Assembly: GCA_948543815.1 (NCBI GenBank)
Contig: CAOVHW010000002.1
Location: 13,888-77,887, forward strand
DNA from: an uncultured Eubacteriales bacterium
Lineage (GTDB): Bacteria; Bacillota; Clostridia; Lachnospirales; CAMVHY01
Length of the DNA: 64,000 nt
Reading direction: 5' to 3'
Under the pieces are notes generated by a model, which worked only from the letters and a program-made list of their open reading frames with translations, made no database searches and had not been told where the DNA came from. A program made the translations under genes and the position numbers. Position 1 is the stretch's first letter. The number at the start of each line of letters is the position of its first letter. This document shows, piece by piece, positions 1 to 61,725 of this stretch.

Positions 1-861
1 ATTATATTCATCTGCATTCCAATCTCTTTTTGGAGTATGAGTAAGAATAATAACTTTATTTTTACCTGAAGTCTTTAGCAATTTTTTATATATTGCATTA
101 AAACGATTAGTTTCTTGTATATCTTTTTGCAAAGCTTCCTCTCCTGATAATTCATAAAAGCTTTTACCATAATTTATTTGTAAAGCATTAAATTCTTTAT
201 TTAGTCCACTAAAACCTATTCCACCTAAAATACTAACTGCACTATTTTGAACTTTCTCTCTTAACTTTGATTCACCCATTTTTAATATTTCTTCTTCATG
301 CAAAATTTTACACTTCCATCTATACTCTGTATCTTCCATATATAATAAATCATTATGTAAAAAATTTATACCTAAAATATCAAAAAATTTTCTGTACATT
401 CCTATATTTTTTTCCATCTCAATCCATGGATCAATTAACTCATGATTACCAGATACTACTACTATTTTTTCGGAATCCCAATGTTTTATTATTTCTTTAT
501 AAAATATACAATTAAATTCAAATCTAGAAGAAGTATCTCCTGCAATTAATAAATAACTGAATGGTAATGGCTTGGTCCCAATAGAATTAACCATTTCTCT
601 TGCTAAACATCTTATATAATGGCGTATTTCTTCTTTTGTTGCTTTTCCCTCACCAAACATATTGTAAACGCGATGTGTTAAATGAATATCACTAATATAA
701 AAAAATATAATATGTTCAATATCCCAACGTGCCTCTCCTTGTTCATCAATAGGTTTGGGATAATAAAATCTATCGGTTACTACAATTTCATTGTTTACGA
801 TAATTTCTTCAGTATTTATATGTTTTTTTATACCGGAATAATATTTCCCATCATATAATCC
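1..861 (-). CDS. calcineurin-like metallophosphoesterase domain ORF (no canonical start before motif I; 3' end runs off window)
   Basis: Own minus-strand translation, not in the ORF track: ...RWDIEHIIFFYISDIHLTH...YLLIAGDTSSRFE...IVVVSGNHELIDPW... These match the DxH, GD and GNHE motifs of metallophosphoesterases. The frame is open from 861 to position 1. The first ATG/GTG/TTG in frame is at 660, downstream of the DxH motif. Confidence 0.6.
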
Positions 862-1713
862 TTACAAATCTAATATGTCTGCTTTTATAATTGCACCTTC
901 AATATTATATTTTTTCAAATCAATTCCAGCAAAATCATACTCAAGTAACACGGCATCAAAAAGATTACCATTCAAGAAATTATAAAATTCATTGAAATCA
1001 TTAAATTCTTTTGTAATCTCATATGTTTTCTCATGCATAATATTTTCATTGAATAATGAAGAAACTTTGTCATATACTACTTTAATAGAAATTGCAAACA
1101 TTTTTCTCTCTGCAGCATAAAATTTCTTTACAACTTGTAATTTCCCCATTGACTTTTGATAAGCCAAAATATCATCAGATATTTTTATTTGCTCTGGCAT
1201 ATATTGCGCAATAGAAAAATCTTTTTTCATATATTCTATACATAATTTTCTTACATCCGGACGATTAGGCATATACTTAAACCAAGATGGATCGTAACTC
1301 ACAATTTTTTTTATCAAATCAATTTCTATTTTATCATTAAACAATTCACATATATTTTCATATGAAACATATGATAAATTTTTTACATCTTTTTTTACTG
1401 CATTCATACAAATTTCTGATGTTTTAAAATTTTCCGGTAATTTATTTAAAAATTTGGGATAAGCTTCAACTGCCAATTCACTCATTTTTTTAGTAATAAA
1501 TTGATTAGGAACGTATTGGAAAGCTTTTGCATTATTTTTTACAGCTATCAAACAAATATTAGAATTTAAACATTTTCTAGATGCAAATTTTAATGCTAAT
1601 GGATTTTGTTTAATAGCTATTTCACAAATTTCTGGTGTTTGCTCTTTTTTAGGAACTTTTTGCAACAACATACAATTTGTTTTTAATTCCTTTACTATAT
1701 CCATATCATTCAA
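862..1713 (-). CDS. DUF4116-like repeat protein with pentapeptide-like C-terminus
   Basis: Four roughly 30-aa repeats of the type A[IV]K.N..AL.[FY][AV][SP] (AIKQNPLALKFAS, AVKNNAKAFQYVP, AVEAYPKFLNKLP, AVKKDVKNLSYVS). The C-terminal stretch AVLLEYDFAGIDLKKYNIEGAIIKADILDL resembles the start of a pentapeptide repeat. Confidence 0.55.
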   Translation of the reverse strand: MNDMDIVKELKTNCMLLQKVPKKEQTPEICEIAIKQNPLALKFASRKCLNSNICLIAVKNNAKAFQYVPNQFITKKMSELAVEAYPKFLNKLPENFKTSEICMNAVKKDVKNLSYVSYENICELFNDKIEIDLIKKIVSYDPSWFKYMPNRPDVRKLCIEYMKKDFSIAQYMPEQIKISDDILAYQKSMGKLQVVKKFYAAERKMFAISIKVVYDKVSSLFNENIMHEKTYEITKEFNDFNEFYNFLNGNLFDAVLLEYDFAGIDLKKYNIEGAIIKADILDL

Positions 1714-1810: not shown

Positions 1811-2728
1811 TTAATTTTTTTGAAACGAAGAAATTTTAACATCCAACTCTTTTAACGTTTTCATTGCGTTTTCGAATAATAATTCATTGTACGTACCATC
1901 AAATATTTTTTTAAAATCATTGCACATACAATACAAACACATTTCCAACAAAATACTGTCAAAATTTTTATTCATGCAATATAAATTCAAATTATCGAGC
2001 GCAAAAACATCAGGACGTTTAATTTTAAAATCTGTAAAATTATCTTTTCGTCCACTTAAATCAAAATACAAAACTTTTTTACCTAATGCGTGTGCAAAAT
2101 CGCAATCCATTCCCGTATTTATTATTACGTCCGCATTTTTCAGATACAATTTATTATAATTCAAAATTTGTATATTCAAACCGACATCTTTAAAAATGTC
2201 GTGCTCTTTTTGCGTATAAATTTCTTTCGTACCTGTAATAATTGTCAAATAATTCACATGCGGATATATTGCATCAATAAGAATTTGTGTCAGTAAATAA
2301 TTTTTATCAAGAATAAAAATTTCGAGCTGTCCAAAGTTTTTGTCTGTAACATCAAAAAATTTTTTTATTACATCGATTGCCAAAAATGCGAACAAAAAAT
2401 TACCGTGTGCAATCGGTATATCTATTTCAATGTCCGTGCGCGGCAACCTTATAATTTTAATCTGTGGCAATGATTTTATAGCAAGGTTTAATGAATGTAA
2501 AAATTTTTTTTCATCGGTTTTTATTTTCTCAAGTGGTAGTTTAATCGAAAAACCATCTGCGAAATCAAAATTTAATTTCTCAATCAAAATTGGATTAAAT
2601 TTTTTGACATACCAATCCCATATGAAATCCGGCGCCTTACGCAAAATATTAAACCTAATGGGAATTTCAGCTTTATTTTCCACGTAATTAAAAATTGCGA
2701 ACTTGTCCAAAAAAAATCCCTCGCACAT
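1811..2728 (-). CDS. hypothetical protein (305 aa), possible Rossmann-like C-terminal half
   Basis: Long ORF co-directional with its neighbours. I recognise no diagnostic motif. The stretch NADVIINTGMD resembles a nucleotide-binding fold edge only weakly. Confidence 0.5.
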   Translation of the reverse strand: MCEGFFLDKFAIFNYVENKAEIPIRFNILRKAPDFIWDWYVKKFNPILIEKLNFDFADGFSIKLPLEKIKTDEKKFLHSLNLAIKSLPQIKIIRLPRTDIEIDIPIAHGNFLFAFLAIDVIKKFFDVTDKNFGQLEIFILDKNYLLTQILIDAIYPHVNYLTIITGTKEIYTQKEHDIFKDVGLNIQILNYNKLYLKNADVIINTGMDCDFAHALGKKVLYFDLSGRKDNFTDFKIKRPDVFALDNLNLYCMNKNFDSILLEMCLYCMCNDFKKIFDGTYNELLFENAMKTLKELDVKISSFQKN

Positions 2729-2772
2729 ATTTATCTGAAATAAATATATGAGCGCGGGATTGTGAACATTCT

Positions 2773-3507
2773 CTAATATGTAAATTTTTTTTGAACATCC
2801 TCATACGCTTTCGGCGTACCAATATCGTAGCATTCGCCAATTATTTTATATATATAAACATCTTGACGTTTATAAAGCCATTGCAAAAAAAATCCAGGTG
2901 CATCCGGAATATTTCCATCTTGCAAATATTTTTTTATGAGCGGTAAAGTTTGTTTGCGATAAATATAATTTGCATAGACAACAAGATTTGACTTCGGAAC
3001 CTGTGGTTTTTCCTCTAAATCAATTAATTTATTATTTCCATCCGTTAATGCAATAGCAAATTGATTTAACAAATTTTTATCATTAAACTCTTTTGCGCAC
3101 GCACAATCTTTTTGACACGCCATAGCAAATTCGTAATAATCTTTTAACTGAAATGTAAAGAAATTATCGCCAGCAATTATAATTAAATCGTCATTAATTT
3201 TCTCATGGTCAATAACGAATTGAATATCGCCAATCGCACCTTTTTTATCTCCATCTTGTGTCGTCCCATCATTTATAACTTTTACCGGAATTTGTGAATT
3301 AATTGAAATTTGCCAGTCAAAAAAATTTTGTGCGAACTTCGCATTCGTTACAACATAGATATAATCAACTGCCTCCAAATTATTAATTTGGTCAACAATG
3401 TAATTAATAATTGGCTTATTATTTATCGGTAATAAAGCTTTTGGCATATTTAATGTCAAAGGATATAAACGAGTTGCATAGCCTGCCGCTAAAATAATTG
3501 CTTTCAT
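2773..3507 (-). CDS. sugar-phosphate nucleotidyltransferase (NTP_transferase family)
   Basis: N-terminus MKAIILAAGYATRLYPLTLNMPKALLPI matches the G-x-G-T-R-L signature of glucose-1-P nucleotidyltransferases. An RBS precedes the ATG. Confidence 0.8.
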   Translation of the reverse strand: MKAIILAAGYATRLYPLTLNMPKALLPINNKPIINYIVDQINNLEAVDYIYVVTNAKFAQNFFDWQISINSQIPVKVINDGTTQDGDKKGAIGDIQFVIDHEKINDDLIIIAGDNFFTFQLKDYYEFAMACQKDCACAKEFNDKNLLNQFAIALTDGNNKLIDLEEKPQVPKSNLVVYANYIYRKQTLPLIKKYLQDGNIPDAPGFFLQWLYKRQDVYIYKIIGECYDIGTPKAYEDVQKKFTY

Positions 3508-3559: not shown

Positions 3560-4222
3560 TTAATCCTGCATTTTTTGGTAAAGTTTTTTTAACGCTTTTT
3601 TTTCAATACGAGAGACATAGCTACGAGAAATACCTAAGAGTTCCGCAATTTCACGTTGAGTTTTCTCATAGCCATTTAGTAAACCGTAGCGCATAGCGAT
3701 AATTAATTTTTCACGTTCATGTAAAAAATTTTTGATTATCTGGTATACACGATGGCTCTCAAATTTTAGATTTATTTTCTCATCAATATTCTCACGTTCG
3801 TCAAAAAGTTTATCCTCTAAACTTACCTCATTCCCCTCATTATCAATACCTATTGGGCCCTGTAGTGAGACATCATTAAAATATTTTTTAGATGAACGGA
3901 TATGCATTAAGATTTCATTTTCGATACAACGAGCGGCATAAGTTGCAAGTCGTACTCCTTTGTCAACTTTATACGTATTAATTGCCTTAATCAAACCAAT
4001 AGTTCCAATAGAGATTAAATCCTCATTTTCTTTCCCATTATATTTTTTAACGATATGAGCAACAAGCCGTAAATTCCTCTCAATTAAAATATTTTTAGCA
4101 TCATGACTACCATTTTTGTACTCATTAAAATATTTTTGTTCTTCTTCAAGTGTTAAAGGCTTTGGAAAAGAATTATTCGTAACGTATGCGAACATAAATA
4201 TAAAATTTAATAATCCAAACAA
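3560..4222 (-). CDS. sigK: RNA polymerase sporulation sigma factor SigK (pro-sigma-K, uninterrupted)
   Basis: YVTNNSFPKPL...LIERNLRLVAHIVKKY...DLISIGTIGLIKAINTY...LATYAARCIENEILMHIR...DVSLQGPIGIDNEGNEVSL...ISRSYVSRIEKKAL closely parallels B. subtilis SigK, including the pro-sequence junction. The likely start is the TTG at 4222, 5 nt after GGGAGGTG. The ORF track's ATG at 4285 has no RBS. Confidence 0.85.
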   Translation of the reverse strand: MFGLLNFIFMFAYVTNNSFPKPLTLEEEQKYFNEYKNGSHDAKNILIERNLRLVAHIVKKYNGKENEDLISIGTIGLIKAINTYKVDKGVRLATYAARCIENEILMHIRSSKKYFNDVSLQGPIGIDNEGNEVSLEDKLFDERENIDEKINLKFESHRVYQIIKNFLHEREKLIIAMRYGLLNGYEKTQREIAELLGISRSYVSRIEKKALKKLYQKMQD

Positions 4223-4312
4223 AAAGACACCTCCCGCCCTACATAATTTAATATATGTAGGCCTAAGAGGTGCCGTGCAAGTCAATAATTTGTGTTACGC
4301 GTTTTTAATTTG

Positions 4313-6355
4313 TTAAATTTGTACAACTTCTGGTTGAGATTCAATTTGTGGAAAAATATTTTTTTCATCAAAATAATTTTTTAAATCTGAACCCAATTTA
4401 CTACCATTCGCTTCCATTATAATTTTTTGATAAATTTCACTCATATTCTTTTCTTCGCTTTTCTTTTGTTCAAACCAACTCACCATAAACGTTTCAACAA
4501 ATTCTTTAGTAAGCAACGATGCCATAATTAAACTAAAACCAGCAACCGAATTTAACAAATTCATTGCCCCAATAAATGTTCCATATAATTCAACAAAACT
4601 TTCTGTATCAGTTATTGTTTTACCTAAAATCTCAACAGTTGCACGAAATTCAGGATGTTGAATAAAATTATTTTTAAATTCTTCTTTGTTTAGTTCAGGT
4701 ACAAGACCGAAAACTTTTTTCTGATTTTCAGAAAGAACAAAAAAGTCTGCATCTTGAGCTAATTTTTCAAAATTTGTGACAAGCGTGTTGCTATTCTCGC
4801 CTCTATTTTTAACTATTAATTTCTTTCTGTTTGAATAAATCCAATCAAGAAATTCTTTTTGATTTGGAACCTTTTCCGTAACCTTTGCAAGTTTAGTAAA
4901 ACTTTCTTTGTTTAAATTCAAACATAAGCTTCTATTCCACCACCAACTTCTTGATGATAGCTCAAATAAAATAACTATTTCGTCTCCTTCTAGCTCTGGT
5001 CTTTTATCCATACGTACCATAACAGATGATCTATTAACTTCATCTTTCTTTAATGGAATATTTAATGCAGTATCGTCTCTAAAAAATTCTCCTTCCTTAA
5101 TTAAAGTAACTTTTGCTTTTGTTTCCCATGTAACATCACGATTGTAAAAAAGTCTTTGATTTTCGTTATAACATTCCAACAAAGCTTTAAAATTTTCATT
5201 TTTTTCTAATATAAAATTTAAAAATTCTTCATCTTCAAATGCTTTTTTGAAAAATCTTGAACGAAAAACATATTGATTCAAAAATGTTTTAATTTCTCCC
5301 TCATAATCATTTGTGATATTTTCTATGTAATTCATGAAATTAGTAAAAATAAAATTATTTTCATCTGTAAACTGAGACAAGTCTGCTTGATTAAATAAAT
5401 TTAAAGAATTTTGCTCCTTATTTCCCTCAGTTTTTAATTGAAATATTTTATTTATCACTATTTCTAAATTGTGTACTTTTTTTTCCATTTGCTGTTGCTT
5501 CCAAACTTTTCTTAAATCAAAAAAAGACTCACACATTTTTTTTGGAATAAAATTATCGCCATTTTTATAATAATAAACTTGACCATCTTCAGATAAACTG
5601 AATTTTTTTTCTGATGTAAGCACCGAATTTATTGCATCCAATATTTGCATCAAATAATTAAAATCAAGACCAATGTTACGAAGCACATTAGCAAAAAACT
5701 TATTATAATCATTTTTTAAATAAATAATTTTATTTAACAAAAGAGAAATTACTTTAAATTCATCGACATTATTAGTGTTTTCAATAAATATGTTTATAGA
5801 TTCCGTTGCATATTGTTCTAGATTATAAAAATAAGCCAAATTATTGTTTTGCCATTTTTTAAAAATGCACAAAACATCATTCAATAATCGAAAATTATGC
5901 ATTATTAAATATGCTTCGCTTGAGTTTAATTCATCAGTATATACATATCCATCATCTTTTTTGTTTTCTGGTCTTTGGCCTGCTTTTGCAAGGGCACCAG
6001 ATGCCCCACGAAATACATATTGAAGAAATGGAACTTCATCATAATGCTCAAAACATGCTGTCGTAAAAAAATTCGTACTAAATTTGCCTCTCCAAATGTA
6101 TTTTGCATACAAATCTCTAAACCTCAAATTATTATTTAGCTTTTTTTGCTCATCACGATTCAAAGCATTTTGCAATGCTTCAAAACCTTTTTTTTCAAAT
6201 GCTTCAATTACTTTCATATCATTGCTAAACGCATTTACATTATCTTCAGTTACAAACTTAAAGCTATCATAATTTTCGATTTCTATTTGTGCAATTAAAG
6301 TTAAAATATTATTTACAGCATTTTCATCGTTTTGAGTCACCGCAGGCTCACTCAC
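4313..6355 (-). CDS. large hypothetical protein, member 1 of the 'MSE' paralog family
   Basis: Shares motif blocks with 8738..11686 and 11814..14384: SSRSWWWNRS, EFLDWIYSNRKKL and DADFFVLSENQKKVFGLVPELNKEEFKNNF. The likely start is the GTG at 6355 (GAGGTGATTAATGTGAGTGAG), homologous to the ATG context of the other two. Confidence 0.7.
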   Translation of the reverse strand: MSEPAVTQNDENAVNNILTLIAQIEIENYDSFKFVTEDNVNAFSNDMKVIEAFEKKGFEALQNALNRDEQKKLNNNLRFRDLYAKYIWRGKFSTNFFTTACFEHYDEVPFLQYVFRGASGALAKAGQRPENKKDDGYVYTDELNSSEAYLIMHNFRLLNDVLCIFKKWQNNNLAYFYNLEQYATESINIFIENTNNVDEFKVISLLLNKIIYLKNDYNKFFANVLRNIGLDFNYLMQILDAINSVLTSEKKFSLSEDGQVYYYKNGDNFIPKKMCESFFDLRKVWKQQQMEKKVHNLEIVINKIFQLKTEGNKEQNSLNLFNQADLSQFTDENNFIFTNFMNYIENITNDYEGEIKTFLNQYVFRSRFFKKAFEDEEFLNFILEKNENFKALLECYNENQRLFYNRDVTWETKAKVTLIKEGEFFRDDTALNIPLKKDEVNRSSVMVRMDKRPELEGDEIVILFELSSRSWWWNRSLCLNLNKESFTKLAKVTEKVPNQKEFLDWIYSNRKKLIVKNRGENSNTLVTNFEKLAQDADFFVLSENQKKVFGLVPELNKEEFKNNFIQHPEFRATVEILGKTITDTESFVELYGTFIGAMNLLNSVAGFSLIMASLLTKEFVETFMVSWFEQKKSEEKNMSEIYQKIIMEANGSKLGSDLKNYFDEKNIFPQIESQPEVVQI

Positions 6356-6394
6356 ATTAATCACCTCATTTTCAAAATAAAACTCCCTGTTTAT

Positions 6395-6422
6395 ATTATA
6401 CGCGATACTGTAAAAATATCAA
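6395..6422 (-). promoter_or_regulatory. sigma-A-type promoter candidate for paralog 1
   Basis: Minus strand reads TTGATA, a 16-nt spacer, then TATAAT. It lies between the ackA stop (6443) and the paralog start (6355). Confidence 0.45.
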
Positions 6423-6442
6423 CAAAAATATGTAAATTTTGA

Positions 6443-7627
6443 TTATATAAGAGCAAGCGTTTCCTTGGCAATCATTAATTCTTCATTTGTCGGAACAACT
6501 AAAAGTTTCACGCGCGAATTATCGGCTGAAAAATCAATCTCTTGACCCTTACAATTATTTTTTTCTTTATCGATTTCAACGCCTAAATAATTTAGATATG
6601 AACAAATTTTTTCACGAGTAATCGGACTATTTTCACCTAATCCAGCAGTAAAAACAATTGCGTCAACACCGTTCATAGCAGCCGCATAACTTCCAATATA
6701 TTTTGCACAACGATAGTAAAAAATTTCTAGCGCAATTTTTGCCCGCTCATTACCATTTATTGCAGCGGCTTCGATATCGCGAAAGTCACTAGATATGCCG
6801 GAAATGCCAAAAACTCCCGACTTTTTATTTAATATATCATCGATTTGATTTATTGTCAAATTTTCTTCACACATCAAAAATTTTATAATAGCGGGATCGA
6901 TGTCGCCACATCTTGTCCCCATTGCCAAACCTTCAAGCGGTGTAAACCCCATCGAAGTATCGATACACTTGCCATTTTCGACTGCACAAATACTTGAGCC
7001 ATTACCGAGATGGCAAGTAATAATTTTCAAATTTGAGTTATCTAACATTTTTGTTGCACGCATCGAAACATATTGATGACTTGTGCCATGAAAACCATAG
7101 CGGCGAATCTGATAGCGCTCAAAATATTCATAAGGTAAGGCATAGAGGAAAGCTTTTGTCGACATTGTTTGATGAAAAGCGGTATCGAAAACCGCAACTT
7201 GTTTTGTCCACGGCATCAATTTTTCACACGCTTCAATCCCCATTAAATTTTGTGGATTATGCAACGGTCCAAGTATAAAACATTCACGTATAGCATTCTT
7301 TACCTCGCTGTCAACTATAACAGGCTTATTAAAAAATTTTCCGCCATGTAAAACTCGATGACCCACCGCATCTATCTCTGTAATATTTTGCAAAACGCCA
7401 TAATTTTCATCCAAAAGATTGTCCATAACAATTTGTACAGCGTCCAAATGATTTTGCAATGAAATTTCTTTTTCAAATGAATTGCCATCAAAAATTTTGT
7501 GAGTGACACGTGAATTATTAAGGCCGATTCGCTCACATAAACCTTTCGCTAAAACCTGTTCAGTATCCATATCAATTAACTGATATTTGAGCGACGAACT
7601 CCCACAATTCAAAACAAGAATTTTCAT
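6443..7627 (-). CDS. ackA: acetate kinase
   Basis: MKILVLNCGSSSLKYQLIDM... and the full-length family pattern. The start is taken at the internal ATG preceded by AAAGGAGCG. The 31-aa N-terminal extension in the track overlaps pta. Confidence 0.95.
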   Translation of the reverse strand: MKILVLNCGSSSLKYQLIDMDTEQVLAKGLCERIGLNNSRVTHKIFDGNSFEKEISLQNHLDAVQIVMDNLLDENYGVLQNITEIDAVGHRVLHGGKFFNKPVIVDSEVKNAIRECFILGPLHNPQNLMGIEACEKLMPWTKQVAVFDTAFHQTMSTKAFLYALPYEYFERYQIRRYGFHGTSHQYVSMRATKMLDNSNLKIITCHLGNGSSICAVENGKCIDTSMGFTPLEGLAMGTRCGDIDPAIIKFLMCEENLTINQIDDILNKKSGVFGISGISSDFRDIEAAAINGNERAKIALEIFYYRCAKYIGSYAAAMNGVDAIVFTAGLGENSPITREKICSYLNYLGVEIDKEKNNCKGQEIDFSADNSRVKLLVVPTNEELMIAKETLALI

Positions 7628-7640
7628 ACGAAACGCTCCT

Positions 7641-8627
7641 TTAATTTTTCTGTGCCTGAACGCAAGTAATTGCGACAACGCCAACAATATCTTCGGCACT
7701 ACAACCGCGCGACAAATCATTTACTGGTTTTGCAATACCTTGCGTAATTGGACCAAATGCTTGCGCGCCACTAAATCGCTGAACTAATTTGTAACCAATA
7801 TTTCCGGCATCCAAATCCGGAAAAATTAAAACGTTTGCTTTCCCAGCAACATCACTATCTTTAGATTTTATTTGTGCAACTGAATCAACAATTGCCGCAT
7901 CAAGCTGTAATTCGCCATCGATAAGAAAATCCGAATTACTTTCTTTAGCTAAATTTGTAGCTTCAATAACTTTGTCAACGTCAGAATGTTTTGCACTACC
8001 TTTCGTCGAATGTGAAAGCATTGCGACAATCGGTTCGCCCCCAATCAAATTTCTAAATGACTCAGCACTACTCTTAGCTATCTCAGAAAGTTCTAACGCT
8101 GACGGATTTTGATTTATAGCACAATCCGCAAAAATTAATGTGCCATCATAACCAAATTGAGTTGTCGGCGTAACCATGACAAAAATTGCCGACACCAACT
8201 TAGCCGACGGCGCCGTTTTTAAAATTTGTAAAGACGGCCGCAAAACATTTGCTGTTGAATTTATCGCACCGGCAACCATTCCATCAGCCACTCCATCTTT
8301 TACAAGCATAACAGAAAAATATAAAGAATCGTTAAGCAATATCTCGTGAGCTTTTTCTGGCGTCATACCTTTATTTTTTCTAAGTTCATAAAATTTATTT
8401 GACAAATCATTTAATAATTCATCATCTTTTTGCTCAATAAACTTTGCAGTTGATAAATTATAATCTAAAAAATTTTCTTGTTTGCCGATTAAAATTAAAT
8501 CCGCAATATTTTCCGCCAATATAATTTCGGCGGCCTTTAAAGTTCTGACATCAGATGTTTCAGGCAAAACAATAGTTTTTTTATTTTGCTTTGCCATCGA
8601 TTTCATTTTATCTAAAAAATTCATCGC
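7641..8627 (-). CDS. pta: phosphate acetyltransferase
   Basis: MNFLDKMKSMAKQNKKTIVLPE...AGKANVLIFPDLDAGNIGYKLVQR is the typical Pta C-terminal domain. GGAGGT precedes the ATG at 8627. The track's longer start overlaps a hairpin. Confidence 0.95.
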   Translation of the reverse strand, partial: AMNFLDKMKSMAKQNKKTIVLPETSDVRTLKAAEIILAENIADLILIGKQENFLDYNLSTAKFIEQKDDELLNDLSNKFYELRKNKGMTPEKAHEILLNDSLYFSVMLVKDGVADGMVAGAINSTANVLRPSLQILKTAPSAKLVSAIFVMVTPTTQFGYDGTLIFADCAINQNPSALELSEIAKSSAESFRNLIGGEPIVAMLSHSTKGSAKHSDVDKVIEATNLAKESNSDFLIDGELQLDAAIVDSVAQIKSKDSDVAGKANVLIFPDLDAGNIGYKLVQRFSGAQAFGPITQGIAKPVNDLSRGCSAEDIVGVVAITCVQAQKN

Positions 8628-8683
8628 TTTACCTCCAAAAAAATTTTCAAGGTAATTATATAAAAACAAGATATTGCGTGCAA

Positions 8684-8716
8684 ACAAAAAATCTGCCATA
8701 AATTTTGGCAGATTTC
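8684..8716 (-). terminator. rho-independent terminator candidate after the 982-aa paralog
   Basis: Minus strand has AAATCTGCCA, a loop, then TGGCAGATTT followed by TTTTTTG, immediately after the stop at 8738. Confidence 0.5.
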
Positions 8717-8737
8717 TATAACCTTTTGAATTTTTAT

Positions 8738-11686
8738 TTATTGCGCTCGTACTGCTGTTCTATTAATAACAGCTTCAAGCTTTGGTATATTTTCTCCTGT
8801 TGCAAGCGCCTCTGCAACTTTTGGATGTGCACCTAAATGACATTTAAAATCATCCGCAAATCCAAAACATTTATTTTTACTTATTAATTCTTCTAACAAA
8901 ATAAAAATATCAGCTAATTTATCTGGTTTAAAATTTAATAATAAAAAATCAGCTAAAAGTTTAGGATTTGAATTTATAATTAATTTTGAATCAATTAATA
9001 ACTCATCCAAACGCGCATAATTCTTCTCACTTAAATTATTTTCTTCTATTCCTTTAGCTATTGTTTTCGAAAAATTTATTGCCTTCTTAATAAAAAATTT
9101 CTTCTTAGAAAATTCAGCAAATATCTGACACAATTTATTTTTTTCATTTTCATTTTTATTTTCCAACATTAAGTTTATTTCTTTGAAATCATTAAAGGAA
9201 ACATAATGCACATTGCTTATATTTAAACCTGCTTTTGATAATTCATTTAACTTCAAAATATTTTCGCCGATGTTTAATTTTTCACGTTCTAAATTAGAAA
9301 CAAATTCAAAAATATAATTTGAATAAACTTTTTGAGAAAGTTCAGCAAATACATTATAAAATTGTTCTTTTTCATTTACATTTTGCATAACTAATTTTAT
9401 TTTTTCAAAATCTAAAACATTTGTTTTGGTTATATCAAATCCTAATTTCAAAAGCTCAAATAATATAAGAACATCATCTTTTGAATTTATAAAATAAAAA
9501 ATATCATCTGTTTTAATTAACTTATGAAATTGTTTAAGTTTAGCACTATCATTTTCAAAAGCTTTTGTAATAAAAGGTTGTTTTTTACTAACAATAATTT
9601 CCATTACTTTAGCCTTTAAATTTTTTGATTTTTCATCATTCAAAAAGGAAATTATTTCATTGAGCGAGTTTAAATATCTATTTTCTTCTACAAAAAATAA
9701 AATTTCAGCAATAAACTCAAGTTTTAATGGTAATTTAAAAATTAAATTTTGAACCTTAGGTAATGATTCAATTACATTCGGTAACAATTTGAAAACTGTA
9801 TAAATTTTATATCCATTTTCATCGTTTAAATAATCACATGCTACTTGACAAATTTTTTCTTGTTCTAGAATATTATTTCCTGGAAATTTATTTTTATAAA
9901 AGTTTATAACATCTCTCGTAAATAATCTTTCCTTATTCTTATTTATTAAATCTCTACATTTTGGATTTAGCAATTCTTCCATAAGCAAATCATTTATATC
10001 CTCTTGACTATTACATGCAATTGAACAAAATTTTAACAATTCATTTTTATATCCTTTATCAATTGGTGGGGTTGTTTTATTTAATTTAGATATAAACAAA
10101 ATCCAATTATAAATATAAGCAAAAGCATATACTTTCTGTATGCATTCAGGAAATTGTTTTAATTCTTCTCCCAAAGTTTCATAAATTTTATTTACATCAA
10201 AAGTATCAAGTGCAATTCGTATATCCTCAATCGTTACACCATTTCTTAAACAATTATTAATATATTCAATAAGACTTAATGAACAAACTTCCGTAATAGT
10301 TAACAAATTTTTTATAGCCTGAGGTGTTTGACAAACATTTCTAAAATTTTCGTTTCGAAATAAATTACGAAATTCATCTTGTCTTTCTAGAGGAACAAGT
10401 TTTAGAAGTTCCTCTTGTTCACGCGAAAAGAAACCAGCATTTTGTGCATGAGTCCAAAAATCACTTGCTAATCCATCTTCTGTTATTAAATTATCTCTAT
10501 TTTGATACAACCATTCATAAAAATTCTCAATTTGTTCTTTAGGCAAATTACTTAAAGTATATGCAATTTTTGATAAACCTCTCTCGCCATTAATGTTTTT
10601 TAATAATCTTTGCAAATTTTTATTTCTGTTACAAAACCAACACTTACGTGAAAAAGAAAATAAAACAACTAATTCTGAAGCAGGTAATTCATAATTTTTA
10701 ATAATTCTTGAAACCGACCATTTATCAAATTCTTTTCTCAAAGAATTTACATCAAAATTAAGTGATTCCCCAAAAGATAAATTTCCAAAAAAATTATTAG
10801 TAAATTCATTTGCCTTTGTACTAAATTTTCTTTCTGCAAAAGAATATATTTTTACTACTTTACCAAAAACAATATTGAAATTTGTTGCATAATCGCTTTT
10901 ACTAAAACTAGATAAAAACTCTTCAAATTCCTTTTTCTTTCTATCAGTTGAAAAACTTATATTACCCTCTTGAACTTTTTCAAAAAAAGCAGCAAAATCA
11001 CAAAGTTCATTATCATAAGCTAATTTGCCAAATATTAAATCATAAAAAAGTTCTTCTGAAATAAATTTTTTTCTTTCTGCAAATGCCAACAAATTTGTTA
11101 AAAAATAAACATATTGTTCTTCATTACTTGAATTTTTACTTTCATTGAATTTAGCCTCGAATTTAGCCTCTTCAACTTTTTTGCATAATACATCTAAAAT
11201 TTGACAAAGCCATAATATATCATTTGTTTTAGTTTCAGTATATTTTTCGGTGTATAAAAAATTTCCTAATTTAGATTCTCGATAAATAGCATGAATCAAA
11301 GTATTTTTATCATCCTTTGGGCTTGAAGCAAATTCATAAAAAAATTTTTTGTTAATATGTTTATTTCTCGCAATAAATTCAGCCAACAAAATCAAAAAAT
11401 TTCTATTTCTTATTTCATAAACATGAAATTCTTTTTCTTCTAAATTTTGAAAATCACTTTTTTCCTCATTTAATAAATTACTCAACTTTTCATAAACTAA
11501 ACTTTCAATTTCATCAATTTCATCAATTTGATTAATATAAAATGAAAATCTATTAAACAATTCTTTGTCAATATTATTTTCATCAAGAAGTTCTATATCT
11601 TTTATTAAATTAAAAATACCTTCTGCAATTCTTTTTGCTTTTGAACGCTCTTCATTATTTTCCGCTACAGCCGTATCCTCACTCAT
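8738..11686 (-). CDS. large hypothetical protein, member 2 of the 'MSE' paralog family (982 aa)
   Basis: Long ORF with RBS/start CGAGGTGATAAAATGAGTGAG. Shares blocks with 11814..14384 over most of its length and with 4313..6355 centrally. No signal peptide or TM segment seen. Confidence 0.75.
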   Translation of the reverse strand: MSEDTAVAENNEERSKAKRIAEGIFNLIKDIELLDENNIDKELFNRFSFYINQIDEIDEIESLVYEKLSNLLNEEKSDFQNLEEKEFHVYEIRNRNFLILLAEFIARNKHINKKFFYEFASSPKDDKNTLIHAIYRESKLGNFLYTEKYTETKTNDILWLCQILDVLCKKVEEAKFEAKFNESKNSSNEEQYVYFLTNLLAFAERKKFISEELFYDLIFGKLAYDNELCDFAAFFEKVQEGNISFSTDRKKKEFEEFLSSFSKSDYATNFNIVFGKVVKIYSFAERKFSTKANEFTNNFFGNLSFGESLNFDVNSLRKEFDKWSVSRIIKNYELPASELVVLFSFSRKCWFCNRNKNLQRLLKNINGERGLSKIAYTLSNLPKEQIENFYEWLYQNRDNLITEDGLASDFWTHAQNAGFFSREQEELLKLVPLERQDEFRNLFRNENFRNVCQTPQAIKNLLTITEVCSLSLIEYINNCLRNGVTIEDIRIALDTFDVNKIYETLGEELKQFPECIQKVYAFAYIYNWILFISKLNKTTPPIDKGYKNELLKFCSIACNSQEDINDLLMEELLNPKCRDLINKNKERLFTRDVINFYKNKFPGNNILEQEKICQVACDYLNDENGYKIYTVFKLLPNVIESLPKVQNLIFKLPLKLEFIAEILFFVEENRYLNSLNEIISFLNDEKSKNLKAKVMEIIVSKKQPFITKAFENDSAKLKQFHKLIKTDDIFYFINSKDDVLILFELLKLGFDITKTNVLDFEKIKLVMQNVNEKEQFYNVFAELSQKVYSNYIFEFVSNLEREKLNIGENILKLNELSKAGLNISNVHYVSFNDFKEINLMLENKNENEKNKLCQIFAEFSKKKFFIKKAINFSKTIAKGIEENNLSEKNYARLDELLIDSKLIINSNPKLLADFLLLNFKPDKLADIFILLEELISKNKCFGFADDFKCHLGAHPKVAEALATGENIPKLEAVINRTAVRAQ

Positions 11687-11813
11687 TTTATCACCTCGAT
11701 TAAAATGTTAAACACATTAATTATCATATAATTATTATAATACATATAAAAATATATTTAAAGTTAATGCGGATAAAATAAATACTCATTTAAATTTAAT
11801 AGTGCTTAATGTT

Positions 11814-14384
11814 TTATTTTTTACCAATTTCATTCGAATTAAAATTTTCTTGAGGCGGCACATTATTTTCTGTAAGTTTCATTCCAACTTCTGGATTTGC
11901 AGCTAAATGTGCACCTAATTCCATAGCATTCATATTATCTGTTTTCTGTAATAAAGTAACGATGTTTGCTAAGTTTTCAACTGATTGCTCCATCGATAAT
12001 AAAATATCAGACAAAATTTTTAATATACCTTTTGCGCGCCATTTAACAAAACTATTTAAACACGAGTCCAAATCATTTGTAAATCTGTTTTCAAGTAAAC
12101 TATTAATAATTTTAAATGCAGTATAAATAGACCCTTTAATATCGCATTTTTTAATTAACTCAACAATTTTTTTCATTAATATTTTTTTGCTTGACTCAGC
12201 ACTTATTTTGGAAAGTTCACTTTTTATTGAACTCCAATCCAAAATATCTATTCGATTTACATCTAATCCTAAATTTAAAAATTCATTTAACATCAAAACA
12301 TCTTCTTTTGAATTTATAAATTTAAAAACATCACACGTTTTGGCTAATTTATAAAACATATTGATTTTACTTTTATCATTTTCAAAAGTTTCTGTAATAA
12401 AATGTTGTTTTTTTTCAACAATAACTTTCATAACTTCAATTTTTGTTTTTTCTGATCCTGGTTTATCTAAAAACAAACTAATTTCATTAGATAAATATAA
12501 ATTATTATTTTGCATGGCAAATAAAAAAGTATCAGCAATAAACTTAGGTTTTAACAAATTGTTACACAAACTTTTTTCTGAAAATTCTGCTGTAGGTAAC
12601 AATTGAAAAAATGCATAAATTGCAACTACATTATTAATTTTTAAATATTTTTTCGCTATATCCGTAATTTCTTCAAAAGCTAACCCTTTATTATTCGCAA
12701 ATTCACGACAATAAAATTCTATACATTCTTTACTAATTAATTTATCTATGTTATTAATTATTACTTCCGGATTAAAGCTTAACTCTCTTATAATAATTTC
12801 ACATATATTATCAACATTCAAATTACATGAAATTTGAGGATATTGTAATAATTTATTTTTATTTTCTATAACAATCGCATTATCAATTTTGTTTAAGTCT
12901 TTAACAAAAGAAATCCAATTATTCAAAAAAAGAAATTCGTATGCTTTTTGCATATCTTTAGAAAATGGATTTAATTTATCTTCAAAAATTTCATAAATTT
13001 TATTTATATCAAAGGTATCAAGCGCAATTCTTATATCCTCAATCTTTACACCATTTCTTAAACAAAAATTAATATATTCAATAGGACTTAATGAACAAGT
13101 TTCCATAATAGTTAACAAATTTTTTACAGCCTGAGGCGTTTGACAAACCTTTCTAAAATTTTCATTTCGAAATAATTTACGAAATTCATCTTTTCTTTCC
13201 GAAGGTACAGAAGGTACAGATTGTAAAAGTTTCTCTTGTTCACGCGAGAAAAAACCAGCATTTTGTGCAAATTCAGGATTAAAATTACCTCTGTTATTTC
13301 GCACCCAAACAAAAAATTCATCACGACGATTTGATTGTAATTTATTTGCAAAATCATAAATATCGCTCAAATTATTTTGCATTGCATTTTTTAAAATTCT
13401 GCGTCTGTTCCAAAAATAACATTTGTCTGAAATAGTTTGCAAAGCAACAGTTTCTTTAAAAGAAAAATTTTTATTTCTGAAAATTTTATATGAAAATCTA
13501 TTTTCGCTTTCCCTGAATCTTATAAATCCATTAACTTCATGAAGAAAAACAATATTATTCTCTTTGTCATCTGTTTCGCTTAATTCTATTTCATTTTCTA
13601 TTTCATTTAACTTAAGTGAAAAATTTTTTATAAAATTATCGGTTTGGTTCTTCTCCTCCAGATATTCAAAAAGTAAATCACCACAAACATCATTTGGTAT
13701 TCCTCTTTTTGTATTAAAAACAGAAGTATAATCATTTTTTTTAATCGACAATTCAATTTTAGTTAAAAACCAAACTGTTGAAACAGCTTTCGTTCCAGTA
13801 TATTTATTACGGTCTAAAGAACCAAATTTATTTTGTCTAATAATTGCTTGCATTACATAATTTTCTTCAATATAACTAAAATTCAATAATTCATTAAGAT
13901 TTTTTCTTTCATGTATAGCATATTCACATAATAATTGTAAAAAAATCCAATTTCTTCTTTCATAAATTTGAAATTCTTCTTCTGATAAATTCTCTAGCTC
14001 TTCTTTACTTTTTCCATCGTTTAATAGATTTATTAATTCTTTACATGAATGCTCATTTTGTAATAAATTTTCTAAATCTGAAGCAATTTCAATGCATGAA
14101 TTTACAATATCATTATTAAAATCTGAATCAGACAAATCTAAATTTTCTAACTCAAATTTATTAAATTTAGGTTTAAAATTATCATCTAAATCATCAAGAT
14201 CATCTAAATTTATAAAAGATTCATTTGAATCATCTAGTTCACCAGAATCATTTAATTTATCAAAATCTACAATTATTTCTTTATTTAAATCCAAATTTTC
14301 AAACACAGGAATTCCATTTTCTTTCGTATTTAAAACAATTTTATCTATTTCATCGAAAATTTTTTGTGCGGTAGTCTCACTCAT
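11814..14384 (-). CDS. large hypothetical protein, member 3 of the 'MSE' paralog family (856 aa)
   Basis: Long ORF with RBS/start CGAGGTGATAAAATGAGTGAG. It has an acidic N-terminal region (DLDDLDDNF...) and a central block nearly identical to that of 8738..11686. Confidence 0.75.
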   Translation of the reverse strand: MSETTAQKIFDEIDKIVLNTKENGIPVFENLDLNKEIIVDFDKLNDSGELDDSNESFINLDDLDDLDDNFKPKFNKFELENLDLSDSDFNNDIVNSCIEIASDLENLLQNEHSCKELINLLNDGKSKEELENLSEEEFQIYERRNWIFLQLLCEYAIHERKNLNELLNFSYIEENYVMQAIIRQNKFGSLDRNKYTGTKAVSTVWFLTKIELSIKKNDYTSVFNTKRGIPNDVCGDLLFEYLEEKNQTDNFIKNFSLKLNEIENEIELSETDDKENNIVFLHEVNGFIRFRESENRFSYKIFRNKNFSFKETVALQTISDKCYFWNRRRILKNAMQNNLSDIYDFANKLQSNRRDEFFVWVRNNRGNFNPEFAQNAGFFSREQEKLLQSVPSVPSERKDEFRKLFRNENFRKVCQTPQAVKNLLTIMETCSLSPIEYINFCLRNGVKIEDIRIALDTFDINKIYEIFEDKLNPFSKDMQKAYEFLFLNNWISFVKDLNKIDNAIVIENKNKLLQYPQISCNLNVDNICEIIIRELSFNPEVIINNIDKLISKECIEFYCREFANNKGLAFEEITDIAKKYLKINNVVAIYAFFQLLPTAEFSEKSLCNNLLKPKFIADTFLFAMQNNNLYLSNEISLFLDKPGSEKTKIEVMKVIVEKKQHFITETFENDKSKINMFYKLAKTCDVFKFINSKEDVLMLNEFLNLGLDVNRIDILDWSSIKSELSKISAESSKKILMKKIVELIKKCDIKGSIYTAFKIINSLLENRFTNDLDSCLNSFVKWRAKGILKILSDILLSMEQSVENLANIVTLLQKTDNMNAMELGAHLAANPEVGMKLTENNVPPQENFNSNEIGKK

Positions 14385-14557
14385 TTTATCACCTCGCTTG
14401 CAAATTTACTGACATATCATTATCATAATACAAAATATATAAAAAGTAAATATATATTTACCAAAAAGCAAAATTAGCAAGACAAATATTTATTAGAAAA
14501 ATTTCGTTTGAGTAACAAAATATGAAATTTTTTCAAGCAAAAAACTTTTTTTAGGCA

Positions 14558-14589
14558 TAAAAAAACTTCGCAAACGCGAAGTTTTTTTC
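14558..14589 (-). terminator. rho-independent terminator after eno (bidirectional shape)
   Basis: AACTTCGC, loop AAAC, then GCGAAGTT, flanked by an A-run on one side and a T-run on the other. It lies 8 nt beyond the eno stop. Confidence 0.6.
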
Positions 14590-20042: not shown

Positions 20043-20052
20043 AAAATCAAAT

Positions 20053-20937
20053 TTATTGTGTTATCTCATCTTCAACATTTTGAAGAAGCGGAGCCTTCGA
20101 TTCATCTAAAGCATTTTGAATTTCTTTACGATTGCGTAAATCAAATGGAATTTCTTTTTTATCAACAACTTTTTCATTTAACTTTGCTTCTACAATTTTA
20201 TTTAATTCTTTATTTACCCTAAATTTATCTGTCAAATAACCGAAAATTCCTATCAACAATAAACTAACAACAGCAAATGCAGCTGCTATTGGCGCAAAAA
20301 TTGTAACTGCCAACGCTCCAACTCCTATTGCTGCACCTAAACCAATTGCTCCAAAGCTAAGTAATCCGCCAAATGTTATTCCTATGCCACCCAAAATTCC
20401 TAACTTTTTATTTTTTGCTTTTCTTTCAGGTAATTCTTTCTTTAAACTTTCTTTTTCTCTTTCATCATGAAATCTACACAAATTTTGAAAAAGTTTTTTT
20501 GACGTTTTATTTAATTCAGAACTTATTTTACATCTATTATCACCTTTAAATACAGATCCATAACAAACGCGATAAAGATTTTTTAAATTTTCACCATCTA
20601 AACTATTTTCTCCACAAGCATTAAGAAATTGAGTTAACAAATAATCATCAAAAAGTAAACTTTTAAATTTATTCAAAAACATTTTTACACACTCTGCATC
20701 CAAGCTTTCTTTTCTACAATCTAAAAAAAAGTACAATGATAAATATTTATCAAAATCAATTCCAATTTTCTCCAGCGCATTTAAAATCTGTTTTGCTTCT
20801 TCGGTAGTCAATACATTTTTACCTAATATCGCAAATTTCCAAATCAATTGCCCCCAGCTATATACATTATTTATCTCACTCAAAAAATTTTGAAATTGTT
20901 GCTTGTGTTTTTGCTTTGAAATTTGCTCATCCGACAT
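20053..20937 (-). CDS. hypothetical membrane protein with Gly/Ala-zipper hairpin and K/E-rich tail
   Basis: ORF with a soluble N-domain, then LGILGGIGITFGGLLSFGAIGLGAAIGVGALAVTIFAPIAAAFAVVSLLLIGIFGY, then a charged tail. The likely start is MSDEQ at 20937, after GGTGAT. Confidence 0.55.
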   Translation of the reverse strand: MSDEQISKQKHKQQFQNFLSEINNVYSWGQLIWKFAILGKNVLTTEEAKQILNALEKIGIDFDKYLSLYFFLDCRKESLDAECVKMFLNKFKSLLFDDYLLTQFLNACGENSLDGENLKNLYRVCYGSVFKGDNRCKISSELNKTSKKLFQNLCRFHDEREKESLKKELPERKAKNKKLGILGGIGITFGGLLSFGAIGLGAAIGVGALAVTIFAPIAAAFAVVSLLLIGIFGYLTDKFRVNKELNKIVEAKLNEKVVDKKEIPFDLRNRKEIQNALDESKAPLLQNVEDEITQ

Positions 20938-21751
20938 AAAAATCACCACACTTTTAAAAAATTTAATCGTAATCGTATATAAAATATTATAATAAAAATT
21001 GAAACAAAATTCAAAAATTGAGTAAAAAAAACAGACAAAATAATTTGTCTGCTTTTTGTGTAAAAATTTTTTAAAAAAAAAGGCGGTAAAAAAATTTCAA
21101 CTGCCTTATATATTTCATGAAAAATCAAATTTACTAAAAAATAAAATTTAAAATCTGAAGATATATTTAGGATAAATATATGTTAAATGAAAAAATAAAA
21201 ATTAAGAAAGAAACTATATTAGAAGCGTCCAAGTTTTTGCGATAAATATTTATTTTTAATAGAATAAAATCATCATAATAAATATAATAATTCAAATTAA
21301 TACCATAAAGTATGAACGAAAACATTGGTTATTAAATAATAAAAATGTAAATATATTTCATATATGATTAACTTTAAATTGCGCACAAAAATAATTCGAG
21401 CATTATGTATTATTAAACGCATTAATAATTTGTAATTTTTATTATAAATTTTTTTGCTATCTTAAAATAAAATAATTTGATAAAGAACCACCATTTTTTT
21501 AGTTCTCATAGTAAAATTTATATATGCAATAAATTTGAACAGCTCGCAATTTATTAATAAGTTTTTGTCTAATATTATAGGATAATTGTTTACTCTTAAA
21601 AATTTTGATAGCTATTGTAAAATAAGTTTTTCGTTTTTGCGAACAAACTATTTACTTGCAACTTCCAATTTACACTTATATAATAACATAGACAAATTTA
21701 TATATTAATATATTTTTTAAATAATTAATATAATAAAATGGAGAAATGCTT

Positions 21752-22496: not shown

Positions 22497-22568
<72 letters not shown>

Positions 22569-22576
22569 AATTTAGA

Positions 22577-22648
22577 TGACTCGTAGGGGATTTGAACCCC
22601 TGTTACAGCCGTGAAAGGGCCGTGTCTTAACCACTTGACCAACGAGCC
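22577..22648 (-). tRNA. tRNA-Glu (UUC)
   Basis: Minus strand reads GGCTCGTTGGTCAAGTGGTTAAGACACGGCCCTTTCACGGCTGTAACAGGGGTTCAAATCCCCTACGAGTCA. It is close to the B. subtilis tRNA-Glu pattern, with anticodon UUC. Confidence 0.9.
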
Positions 22649-22658
22649 ATAAAAAAAA

Positions 22659-22730
22659 CTCCCCGAGCAGGATTCGAACCAGCGACCCTTCGGTTAACAG
22701 CCGAATGCTCTACCGCTGAGCTATCGAGGA
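22659..22730 (-). tRNA. tRNA-Asn (GUU)
   Basis: Minus strand reads TCCTCGATAGCTCAGCGGTAGAGCATTCGGCTGTTAACCGAAGGGTCGCTGGTTCGAATCCTGCTCGGGGAG, with anticodon loop CU-GUU-AA. Confidence 0.9.
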
Positions 22731-22846
22731 TTAACATAAAATATAATAACATAAAAAAAGTTACATGTCAAGAGTAAATTTAAAAATATTTTTTCTATGA
22801 AAGAATTGCCTAAAAATTTTTTTTGATGTATAATAACTAAGGGTTA

Positions 22847-22918
22847 GTGCTCATAGCGAAACGGATATCGCGCACCCCTCCTAAGGGTGAATTATGGGTT
22901 CGATTCCCATTGGGCACA
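22847..22918 (+). tRNA. tRNA-Arg (CCU)
   Basis: GTGCTCATAGCGAAACGGATATCGCGCACCCCTCCTAAGGGTGAATTATGGGTTCGATTCCCATTGGGCACA. Acceptor pairing is GTGCTCA/TGGGCAC, the anticodon stem is CACCC/GGGTG, and the loop is CU-CCU-AA. Confidence 0.85.
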
Positions 22919-60312: not shown

Positions 60313-60360
60313 TTTTGCTCCTTGATATTTTTAGTTTGTTTAATTATATTAAAAAAAAAT

Positions 60361-61716: not shown

Positions 61717-61725
61717 TGATTTATT

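Follow-up and report, generated by a model that had tools for sequence, protein, structure and literature searches.

A clade-restricted family of large helical proteins with mosaic alleles near sigK in uncultured spore-forming Clostridia

What kind of proteins are encoded by three large genes of the minus strand, here called P1, P2 and P3, that lie among the core genes tpiA, gpmI, eno, pta, ackA and sigK in 64,000 nucleotides of DNA from an uncultured Eubacteriales bacterium (contig CAOVHW010000002.1)? This whole stretch is referred to below as the window, and the coordinates are those of the window. Its organism is an AT-rich endospore former, in which SpoIIE, a Csp-type protease and SigK were found. 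P1 (4313..6355) adjoins sigK and encodes 680 residues from a GTG start at 6355; P2 (8738..11686) encodes 982 residues, and its paralog P3 (11814..14384) encodes 856, with an acidic, repeat-containing N-terminus. A preliminary description, made from this sequence alone, had already delimited these three open reading frames (ORFs), all of which are real and intact. The answer reached here is that P1–P3 are a clade-restricted, undescribed family of large, soluble, all-alpha modular proteins. Their most unusual trait, the extreme mosaic allelic divergence of exactly these three genes, went unseen from the single sequence, and such mosaicism shows only when orthologous loci are compared.

Divergence and mosaic structure of the alleles

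The window was compared with four independent haplotypes (L006, L007, L004 and L001, the last equivalent to L005) and later with L093, L094 and L095. The flanking genes (tpi, gpmI, eno, pta, ackA, sigK, the nucleotidyltransferase gene and orf305) are 95–100% identical in protein and 94–99% in DNA, whereas the alleles of P1–P3 share 39–78% protein identity, the closest strain L006 excepted (the P1 orthologs share 38–73%). SpoIIE is 98% identical in a genome of the same species cluster whose P alleles are about 50% identical. Sliding-window identity falls inside the three coding regions only, and the intergenic regions that carry promoters and ribosome-binding sites remain 88–100% identical. The Pfam-less neighbours orf305 and a 154-residue ORF are 94–98% conserved, and hypervariability is thus gene-specific.

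The size of the difference depends on how substitutions are counted. With the Nei–Gojobori method (NG86), the flanks have a nonsynonymous divergence (dN) of 0–0.02 and a ratio to synonymous divergence (dS), ω, of 0–0.15, and the P genes have a dN of 0.13–0.57 and a gene-wide ω of 0.67–1.05, which reaches 1.5 in the P2 pair of the window and L006; in the reliably aligned blocks of the P genes (at least 85% identity) ω is 0.6–2.4. Codon-frequency-aware models matter in this case because the GC content at third codon positions (GC3) of the P genes is 0.12–0.19. With YN00 and maximum likelihood (ML), the P genes have a dN of 0.12–0.63 and ω falls to 0.3–0.5, since dS rises to 0.25–1.4 (ML, most pairs); the flanks have a dS of 0.09–0.22, a dN of at most 0.025 and an ω of 0.01–0.2. 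Given that ω weakens from about 1 to 0.3–0.5, gene-wide positive selection is not claimed. One N-terminal block of P2 has 110 nonsynonymous against 10 synonymous differences (Fisher p = 0.002). What holds robustly is that both dN and dS lie far above those of the flanks, by factors of 20–100 and 3–10, respectively, and that they are so in blocks.

These blocks give the alleles their mosaic character. Stretches of 90–100% identity alternate with stretches of 50–60%, and the block-wise identity matrices are incongruent between strains. The P2 of L007 is nearest to that of L004 at the N-terminus (95%) and nearest to that of the window at the C-terminus (92–94%); the P3 of the window is about 90% identical to that of L004 at the N-terminus and about 90% identical to that of L001 at the C-terminus. 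The central blocks are distinct in every allele (50–62%). Such a pattern reflects recombination among old, diverged segments of alleles. Identical alleles recur on 8–12 contigs from independent samples and sources, which indicates that they are stable alleles and not assembly chimeras.

Exchange seems to have occurred between the paralogs as well. Residues 427–506 of P2 (10169..10408, minus strand; repeat families D1 and D3) are 88–89% identical in nucleotides to P3, and the proportion of synonymous differences there is 0.12–0.22, compared with about 0.5 elsewhere; this block is read as a gene-conversion tract between P2 and P3. In L094, a single gene of 828 residues (4903..7389 of that locus) replaces the P3–P2 pair between eno and pta. 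The N-terminal half of its product is of P3 type (72–84% identity to P3 alleles and 25–38% to P2 alleles), and the C-terminal block is of P2 type (about 42% vs. about 21%). Since this single fusion gene lies amid flanks that are 96–99.5% identical, copy number varies, and the fusion appears to be the product of unequal crossing-over.

Finally, length varies within the genes. A helical module of about 60 residues is tandemly duplicated in P2 (residues ~732–788 and ~803–864; 9095..9493, minus strand), with a local alignment score of 86 against a shuffle mean of 32.7 (z 9.5, equalled in 0 of 500 shuffles), and the P1 allele of L001 carries a tandemly duplicated module of 60–70 residues (z 33, by the same procedure). 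BLASTP self-comparison had given no internal repeats at E-values up to 0.05; the duplications emerged through shuffled local alignment. In-frame tandem repeats in P3, with periods of 9, 12 and 18, coincide with the sites of indels and are attributed to slippage, and all indels are in frame. Five routes to diversity can be distinguished in the sequences: old blocks undergo homologous recombination, paralogs convert one another, crossing-over can be unequal, modules are duplicated, and repeats that stay in frame are subject to slippage. In evolutionary terms, the locus belongs to the class of segmentally variable, mosaic recombining loci.

Family relationships, fold and phyletic range

P2 and P3 are 34% identical across about 900 columns (E 1e-107). 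P1 aligns with P2 in one block of about 135 residues alone (E 4e-13) and more weakly with P3 (E 1e-3); when the subfamily alignments of P2/P3 (A1) and P1 (A2) are compared profile against profile in hhalign, they match over 122 columns with a probability of 98.3% and an E-value of 2.5e-14. The statement that the three genes are clearly paralogous therefore stands in full for P2 and P3, which by these alignments are clear paralogs, and has to be softened for P1, a distant paralog through a single shared domain of about 120 residues. This core domain occupies residues 441–572 of P1 (4640..5035; hhalign and alignment A3), residues 321–450 of P2 (10337..10726) and residues ~291–424 of P3 (13113..13514; P3 alignments and A3), all on the minus strand. 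In P1 it contains the motifs ELSSRSWWWNRS, FLDWIYSNR, FFxLSxNQxKVF and EEFKxNFxxxPEFR. The three shared blocks that had been noticed at the outset are real, and all of them fall within the core domain in alignment A3. Each protein consists of a conserved core of about 120–180 residues and of flanking helical modules that vary between strains.

The AlphaFold2 (AF2) model of P2 is made up of helices throughout, with a mean predicted local distance difference test score (pLDDT) of 63.6, values of 70–90 across residues 270–770 and 77–90 in the core domain. The model of P1 is also helical, with a mean pLDDT of 56.5 and values of 74–88 across the N-terminal 300 residues. Membership of a solved or predicted structural family was taken to mean a Foldseek E-value below 1e-3 or a sequence-profile match. 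With these models, which are confident in parts, Foldseek returned generic helical proteins of the PDB at best (P2, E 0.047, TM-score 0.10; P1, E 0.37), and the best E-value against BFVD was 0.043; profiles compared with PDB sequences gave no match at E-values up to 1. Searches of Pfam, NCBIfam and PHROGs found nothing above noise (the best Pfam match has an E-value of 0.078 and 13.8 bits, against a cutoff of 27), and when each family member was scanned singly there was no consistent weak signal and no family of these three libraries was matched by more than two members. The best match among the PADLOC defence models has an E-value of 0.75. A search with the core domain alone (alignment A3) gave no matches and missed even family members, so it is uninformative, and a literature search on hypervariable genes linked to sigK returned nothing relevant. 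No confident match to a characterised family emerged from the sequence or structure searches, and the initial opinion that the proteins cannot be assigned to a known family is borne out by libraries, profiles and folds alike.

The family is also very narrowly distributed. Among 5.8 billion proteins, relatives form nine clusters with P2 as the query and six with P1, and the P2/P3 profile, run as an exhaustive hidden Markov model (HMM) search against 1.84 billion representatives, recovered 12 proteins, all of them from one small clade of uncultured spore-forming Clostridia. An alignment-based scan of 185,579 species-representative genomes found a relative in one, and a single-sequence scan of genome contigs with P2 gave no match. 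Annotated phages and plasmids contain no relative. Scans of JGI metagenomes and IMG/VR found no relative either, and these are weak negatives because such scans depend on exact peptide patterns. By every test available, the P family is undescribed, restricted to its clade and outside any known family, fold or system.

The gene order tpiA-gpmI-eno-P3-P2-pta-ackA-P1-sigK, given correctly in the preliminary description, continues with the nucleotidyltransferase gene and orf305 and is common to the related contigs, with the fused single gene of L094 between eno and pta. Downstream of P1 lies sigK itself (3560..4222, minus strand; NCBIfam TIGR02846, an equivalog, 312 bits against a cutoff of 298.65), which is not a member of the family and is its downstream neighbour in three lineages. 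Two deeper lineages, L008 and L009, whose SigK is 83–86% identical, have one relative each of about 1290 residues (P0025 and P0026), encoded directly upstream of sigK between genes that differ on either side from those of the window. The C-terminal 700 residues of P0025 match the P2/P3 profile (probability 100%, E 1.7e-52) and its residues 497–701 match the P1 profile (probability 98.7%, E 3e-16), so that it bridges both subfamilies. No family member was found at 80 sigK loci of other Firmicutes. As the single gene of L008 and L009 also lies directly upstream of sigK, the position of P1 immediately upstream of this gene is ancestral. One ancestral gene of about 1290 residues gave rise to P1, which kept its place, and to the tandem P3–P2 pair between eno and pta. 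The notion of a lineage-specific, expanding family agrees with these counts of one gene in each of the two deeper lineages and three (two in one strain) in the species of the window.

Gene signals, maintenance and neighbourhood

Each P gene has its own signals, all on the minus strand. A ribosome-binding site, GAGGTGAT, stands 3–4 nt ahead of the start codon and is followed by AGT-GAG after the start in P1 (6367..6360, then TAAT-GTG-AGT-GAG), P2 (11697..11690, then AAA-ATG-AGT-GAG) and P3 (14395..14388, then AAA-ATG-AGT-GAG). The common initiation pattern proposed before misses P2 and P3 by a single base, a trivial discrepancy. The GTG start of P1 and its ribosome-binding site are kept in five strains; the mechanical ORF call begins 9 nt upstream of this GTG, within the ribosome-binding site. 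The promoter-like site of P1, TTGATA-16-TATAAT (6422..6395), is likewise present as first described and kept in five strains, and the promoter and ribosome-binding region to which it belongs (6360..6422) is near-invariant despite the divergence of the coding sequence. The sites of P2 (TTTAAA-17-TATAAT, 11762..11734, in the region 11690..11762) and P3 (TTTACT-17-TATGAT, 14450..14422, in the region 14388..14450) are sigma-A-like and weaker. Sigma-A-like promoter matches are not enriched in the region (69 observed, 72 expected in shuffled sequence); the three sites are nevertheless kept across strains.

A predicted intrinsic terminator follows P2 (8686..8713, minus strand), with ATCTGCCA, a 7-nt loop, TGGCAGAT and TTTTT, and the promoter-like site of pta (8684..8655) lies directly beyond it. 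Another one, a hairpin with a T-run 3' of eno (~14588..14559, minus strand), is kept in four strains and sets P3 apart from the glycolytic operon. Both hairpins had been predicted, as had the view that the genes are independently expressed modules, with which the conserved promoter-like site and ribosome-binding site of each gene and the terminator of P2 agree. Nothing indicates that P1, P2 and P3 act together, however, and the suggestion that they make up a 'system' is not upheld.

The proteins have no signal peptide, transmembrane segment, Walker motif, metal-binding motif or other motif, and the enzymatic and export motifs searched for in P1–P3 were not found; hydropathy and motif checks are here in full accord with the preliminary description, which had reported no signal peptide, transmembrane segment, Walker A or catalytic signature. 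Their maximum 19-residue hydropathy is 1.6–1.75, in stretches with polar or charged residues, and their N-termini are acidic.

GC and GC3 are lower in P1–P3 than in any other gene of the window. A stop codon would result from about 6% of random single-base changes in these three genes, and the other two frames hold 56–163 stops per gene; every allele nonetheless keeps an open frame of 640–980 codons despite hundreds of substitutions. One apparent pseudogene, the P1 of L004 (15059..16994, called as ORFs of 234 and 403 residues), was rejected as such: the split is a 29-N scaffold gap, and the intact allele P0024 (640 residues, 11 contigs) matches both halves at 99.6–100%. It was the sole sign of pseudogenisation in the relatives. 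On the evidence of their alleles, the P genes are thus maintained: their ORFs stay intact, each with signals of its own, and selection acts to preserve a complete product.

The spacer between P1 and sigK contains a putative mother-cell-type promoter of sigK, AC-17-CATATATTA (4249..4276, minus strand), which agrees with the elements of sigma-K promoters known from C. difficile (PMC3789822). An 8-bp inverted repeat, CCTACATA/TATGTAGG, overlaps it. There is no terminator between P1 and sigK, and read-through from the P1 promoter into sigK is therefore possible. Upstream of P1–P3 no promoter of sigma-E or sigma-K type (AC/ATA plus CATA-type) was recognised by eye against the C. difficile motifs, which is weak evidence in DNA of 75% AT.

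On the other side of sigK, both the species of the window (1811..3507, minus strand) and L008 (14698..15435) have a sugar-1-phosphate nucleotidylyltransferase gene 3' of sigK, followed in the former by the conserved, Pfam-less ORF of 305 residues (orf305). Together they may form a small late-sporulation or surface-glycan cluster.

Other features of the window may be recorded here. A gene for a 298-residue membrane protein (20053..20949, minus strand), which does not belong to the P family, is also hypervariable (100% identity to L006, 53% to L004 and 44% to L001). Its product is Pfam-poor, with two transmembrane segments at about residues 183–240 and a weak match to a holin family (E 3e-4); the gene is flanked by 59-nt direct repeats (19997–20055 and 21075–21133, 81% identical), and its neighbours, the 154-residue ORF and aroC, are 94–98% identical. 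In the other strains aroC lies between the 154-residue ORF and the DUF1858 gene; on the L094 contig none is called there. A TAA stop (862..864, minus strand) between the ORFs 862..1713 and 1..861 splits a gene for a DUF4116 and metallophosphatase protein that is intact in L004 (874 residues, with CAA for Gln at that position); the genome of the window has either suffered a nonsense mutation or been misread in sequencing here. Two Pfam-less, very AT-rich ORFs (36629..38410, plus strand, 593 residues, GC3 0.13; 38521..39168, minus strand, 215 residues, GC3 0.145) lie between a thiamine pyrophosphokinase gene and the secDF region and are unrelated to the P family according to the HMM. Four tRNA genes, three on the minus strand and one on the plus strand, are found at 22497..22918, and mnmE and mnmG at 60322..63594, a location that may reflect proximity to the replication origin.

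Explanations of the variability

The evolutionary behaviour of the P genes is of a known type, that of segmentally variable mosaic loci, in an unusual guise. The emm/mrp/enn M-protein cluster of Streptococcus pyogenes and pneumococcal PspA are mosaic alpha-helical antigens. The likeness to them is one of analogy: tandem paralogous genes for alpha-helical proteins stand beside a regulator gene, alleles diverge extremely at a fixed locus as a recombination mosaic, in-frame repeats vary the length and recombination between paralogs varies the copy number. Unlike these antigens, P1–P3 have no signal peptide, LPXTG or choline-binding anchor, and thus lack the marks of a surface antigen; there is no similarity of sequence or fold, and they are predicted to form many short helices and not one long coiled coil. 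The specificity subunit of type I restriction enzymes, HsdS, is an example of a segmentally variable gene with a cytoplasmic product, in which conserved and divergent segments also alternate between close relatives and blocks recombine, but P1–P3 are much larger and contain neither an HsdS nor a methylase domain, and restriction-modification partners are missing from their surroundings. As to fold, the top Foldseek neighbours are alpha-solenoid scaffolds of HEAT/ARM type (karyopherins, vinculin, Pds5), which resemble the models in their many stacked short helices and in having no catalytic site; with E-values of at least 0.05, TM-scores of about 0.1 and no match to a repeat family of Pfam, the similarity is non-significant and one of secondary-structure class only.

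The explanation favoured here, held tentatively and with a little less than even confidence, is that the P proteins are modular recognition proteins whose function is binding or scaffolding and whose variation is maintained by diversifying or balancing selection. The conserved core would dock the protein to an invariant partner in the cell, and the swappable helical arms would be the binding or exposed surface, their specificity being driven by diversifying, negative frequency-dependent selection from a fast-evolving counterpart. The locus would then work as a recombining antigen or recognition locus and not as an enzyme.

Within this mechanism, the spore surface, reached from the mother cell, is modestly favoured as the place of action, although this is doubtful when taken on its own. 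Assembly onto the spore by the mother cell would explain the missing signal peptide and fits the neighbourhood of sigK. Outer coat and exosporium proteins of Bacilli and Clostridia are made in the mother cell without signal peptides; like P1–P3, they are lineage-specific. The organism of the window forms spores, and the P family is tied to sigK and lies near a sugar-nucleotidyltransferase gene. The outer proteins are the less conserved ones of the spore coat, and the genes of coat proteins show a raised dN/dS in the Bacillus subtilis group (PMC4219348). Several observations weigh against a place on the spore. The promoters of P1–P3 look sigma-A-like and do not carry the CATA-type -10 box of the sigK promoter, and sigma-E- or sigma-K-type promoters are not seen 5' of the genes; Pfam-A, which covers the described coat and exosporium families, gave no match to P1–P3; and the adjacency to sigK within one clade may be inherited synteny. 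The size and composition of the proteins are atypical too, since large alpha-solenoid-like proteins are not usual components of the coat.

A more specific form of the spore hypothesis, which is possible and far from established, holds that these are strain-specific recognition or antigen-like proteins of endospore formers, signal-less, modular and helical, which the mother cell would assemble on the surface of the spore or which would be set free by lysis. The arms would be reshuffled among the three paralogous loci and would give the spore or cell a strain-specific 'identity' towards host immunity, phages or kin.

Recognition as such also has to face several difficulties. As ω is not robustly above 1 (0.3–0.5 in codon-frequency-aware models), relaxed constraint may account for a share of the signal; no genes of the window are richer in AT than the P genes, as expected near mutational equilibrium; rates are unreliable in the blocks of 50–60% nucleotide identity, which are near alignment saturation; and the PDB and BFVD hold no structural analogue.

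Some of these points are shared by the alternative that survives best, though it too is rather doubtful, namely that P1–P3 are weakly constrained, lineage-specific ORFans that drift towards AT-richness and owe their mosaic to neutral recombination and occasional import from related species. Besides the ML estimates of ω and the lowest GC and GC3 of the window, the lack of any match to a known domain or fold, the very narrow phyletic range and the similar variability of the unrelated gene at 20053..20949 speak for it. What it does not readily accommodate is that dS is 3–10 times that of the flanks in the same genomes, and in blocks, when neutral loci should coalesce like their flanks. Nor does drift sit well with reading frames that stay open in all alleles, with indels that are all in frame, with promoters and ribosome-binding sites that are kept, or with a family that at least three lineages have kept and that has expanded, while the Pfam-less orf305 and 154-residue ORF beside it are conserved.

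The second alternative in order of survival, an unlikely one, places the arms race inside the cell. In this case, the proteins would be vegetatively expressed, cytoplasmic alpha-helical sensors, decoys or exclusion factors that bind the proteins of phages or mobile elements. No export signal was found; the promoters are sigma-A-like and the ribosome-binding sites strong; evolution is segmental and recombination-driven, with paralog expansion and variation in copy number; and the predicted helical-repeat-like architecture suits protein binding. On the other hand, there is no PADLOC match and no effector or NTPase domain, no defence or mobility genes adjoin the P genes, phages and plasmids hold no relatives, and the family occupies the same core-genome site in every genome, not an accessory island. 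As a part of the recognition mechanism, too, an intracellular role against phages or mobile elements is improbable. A family of effector-less intracellular immunity sensors would be an alternative as novel as the spore-surface antigen.

The preliminary description had seen in the P genes an insertion that interrupts the eno / pta-ackA / sigK backbone. A GC content below that of the flanks, the promoters and terminators of their own and the absence of the family from other Firmicutes would suit such a mobile or foreign passenger, but this view is highly improbable and was not sustained: the same arrangement recurs in all related genomes sampled, the sigK-adjacent site is ancestral, no integrase, transposase, reverse transcriptase, type VII secretion system (T7SS) or phage gene is present in the 64-kb window, no tRNA or flanking repeats were found at the borders of the family genes, and phages and plasmids have no relatives. 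Targeted hypermutation by a diversity-generating retroelement or a local mutator, in place of recombination of old alleles, is the least probable of all, for although dN and dS are both locally raised, the window holds neither a reverse transcriptase nor a template/variable repeat pair (the repeats found were confined to the paralogous blocks of P2 and P3), the variation is gene-wide, with indels and blocks, and not confined to one adenine-targeted region, the intergenic DNA between the P genes is conserved, and identical alleles were recovered from many samples.

Two further candidates were rejected. A polymorphic toxin of LXG/T7SS type does not agree with the lack of an LXG match, with variation that is not restricted to the C-terminus or with downstream genes that are pta and sigK, there being no T7SS genes within the window; and the defining features of RRNPP or tetratricopeptide-repeat (TPR) receptors are missing.

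In a backbone that is otherwise 95–99% identical, no markers separate strains nearly as well as P1–P3, which could be used to track strains in metagenomes. If their variability reflects relaxed constraint only, they would be a clean example of long ORFs kept in DNA of 76% AT under very weak sequence constraint. If the recognition hypothesis is true in its spore form, there would be a system of antigenic diversity that is linked to the spore and genetically tied to sigK. More generally, if the arms are a variable recognition surface, a lineage of uncultured spore-forming Clostridia would possess a recombining antigen-type locus without an export signal. To our knowledge, there is no described example of a hypervariable, recombining antigen-type locus in such a lineage whose products carry no export signal, and its existence would point to exposure on the spore surface or upon lysis, or else to intracellular conflict proteins of a new type.

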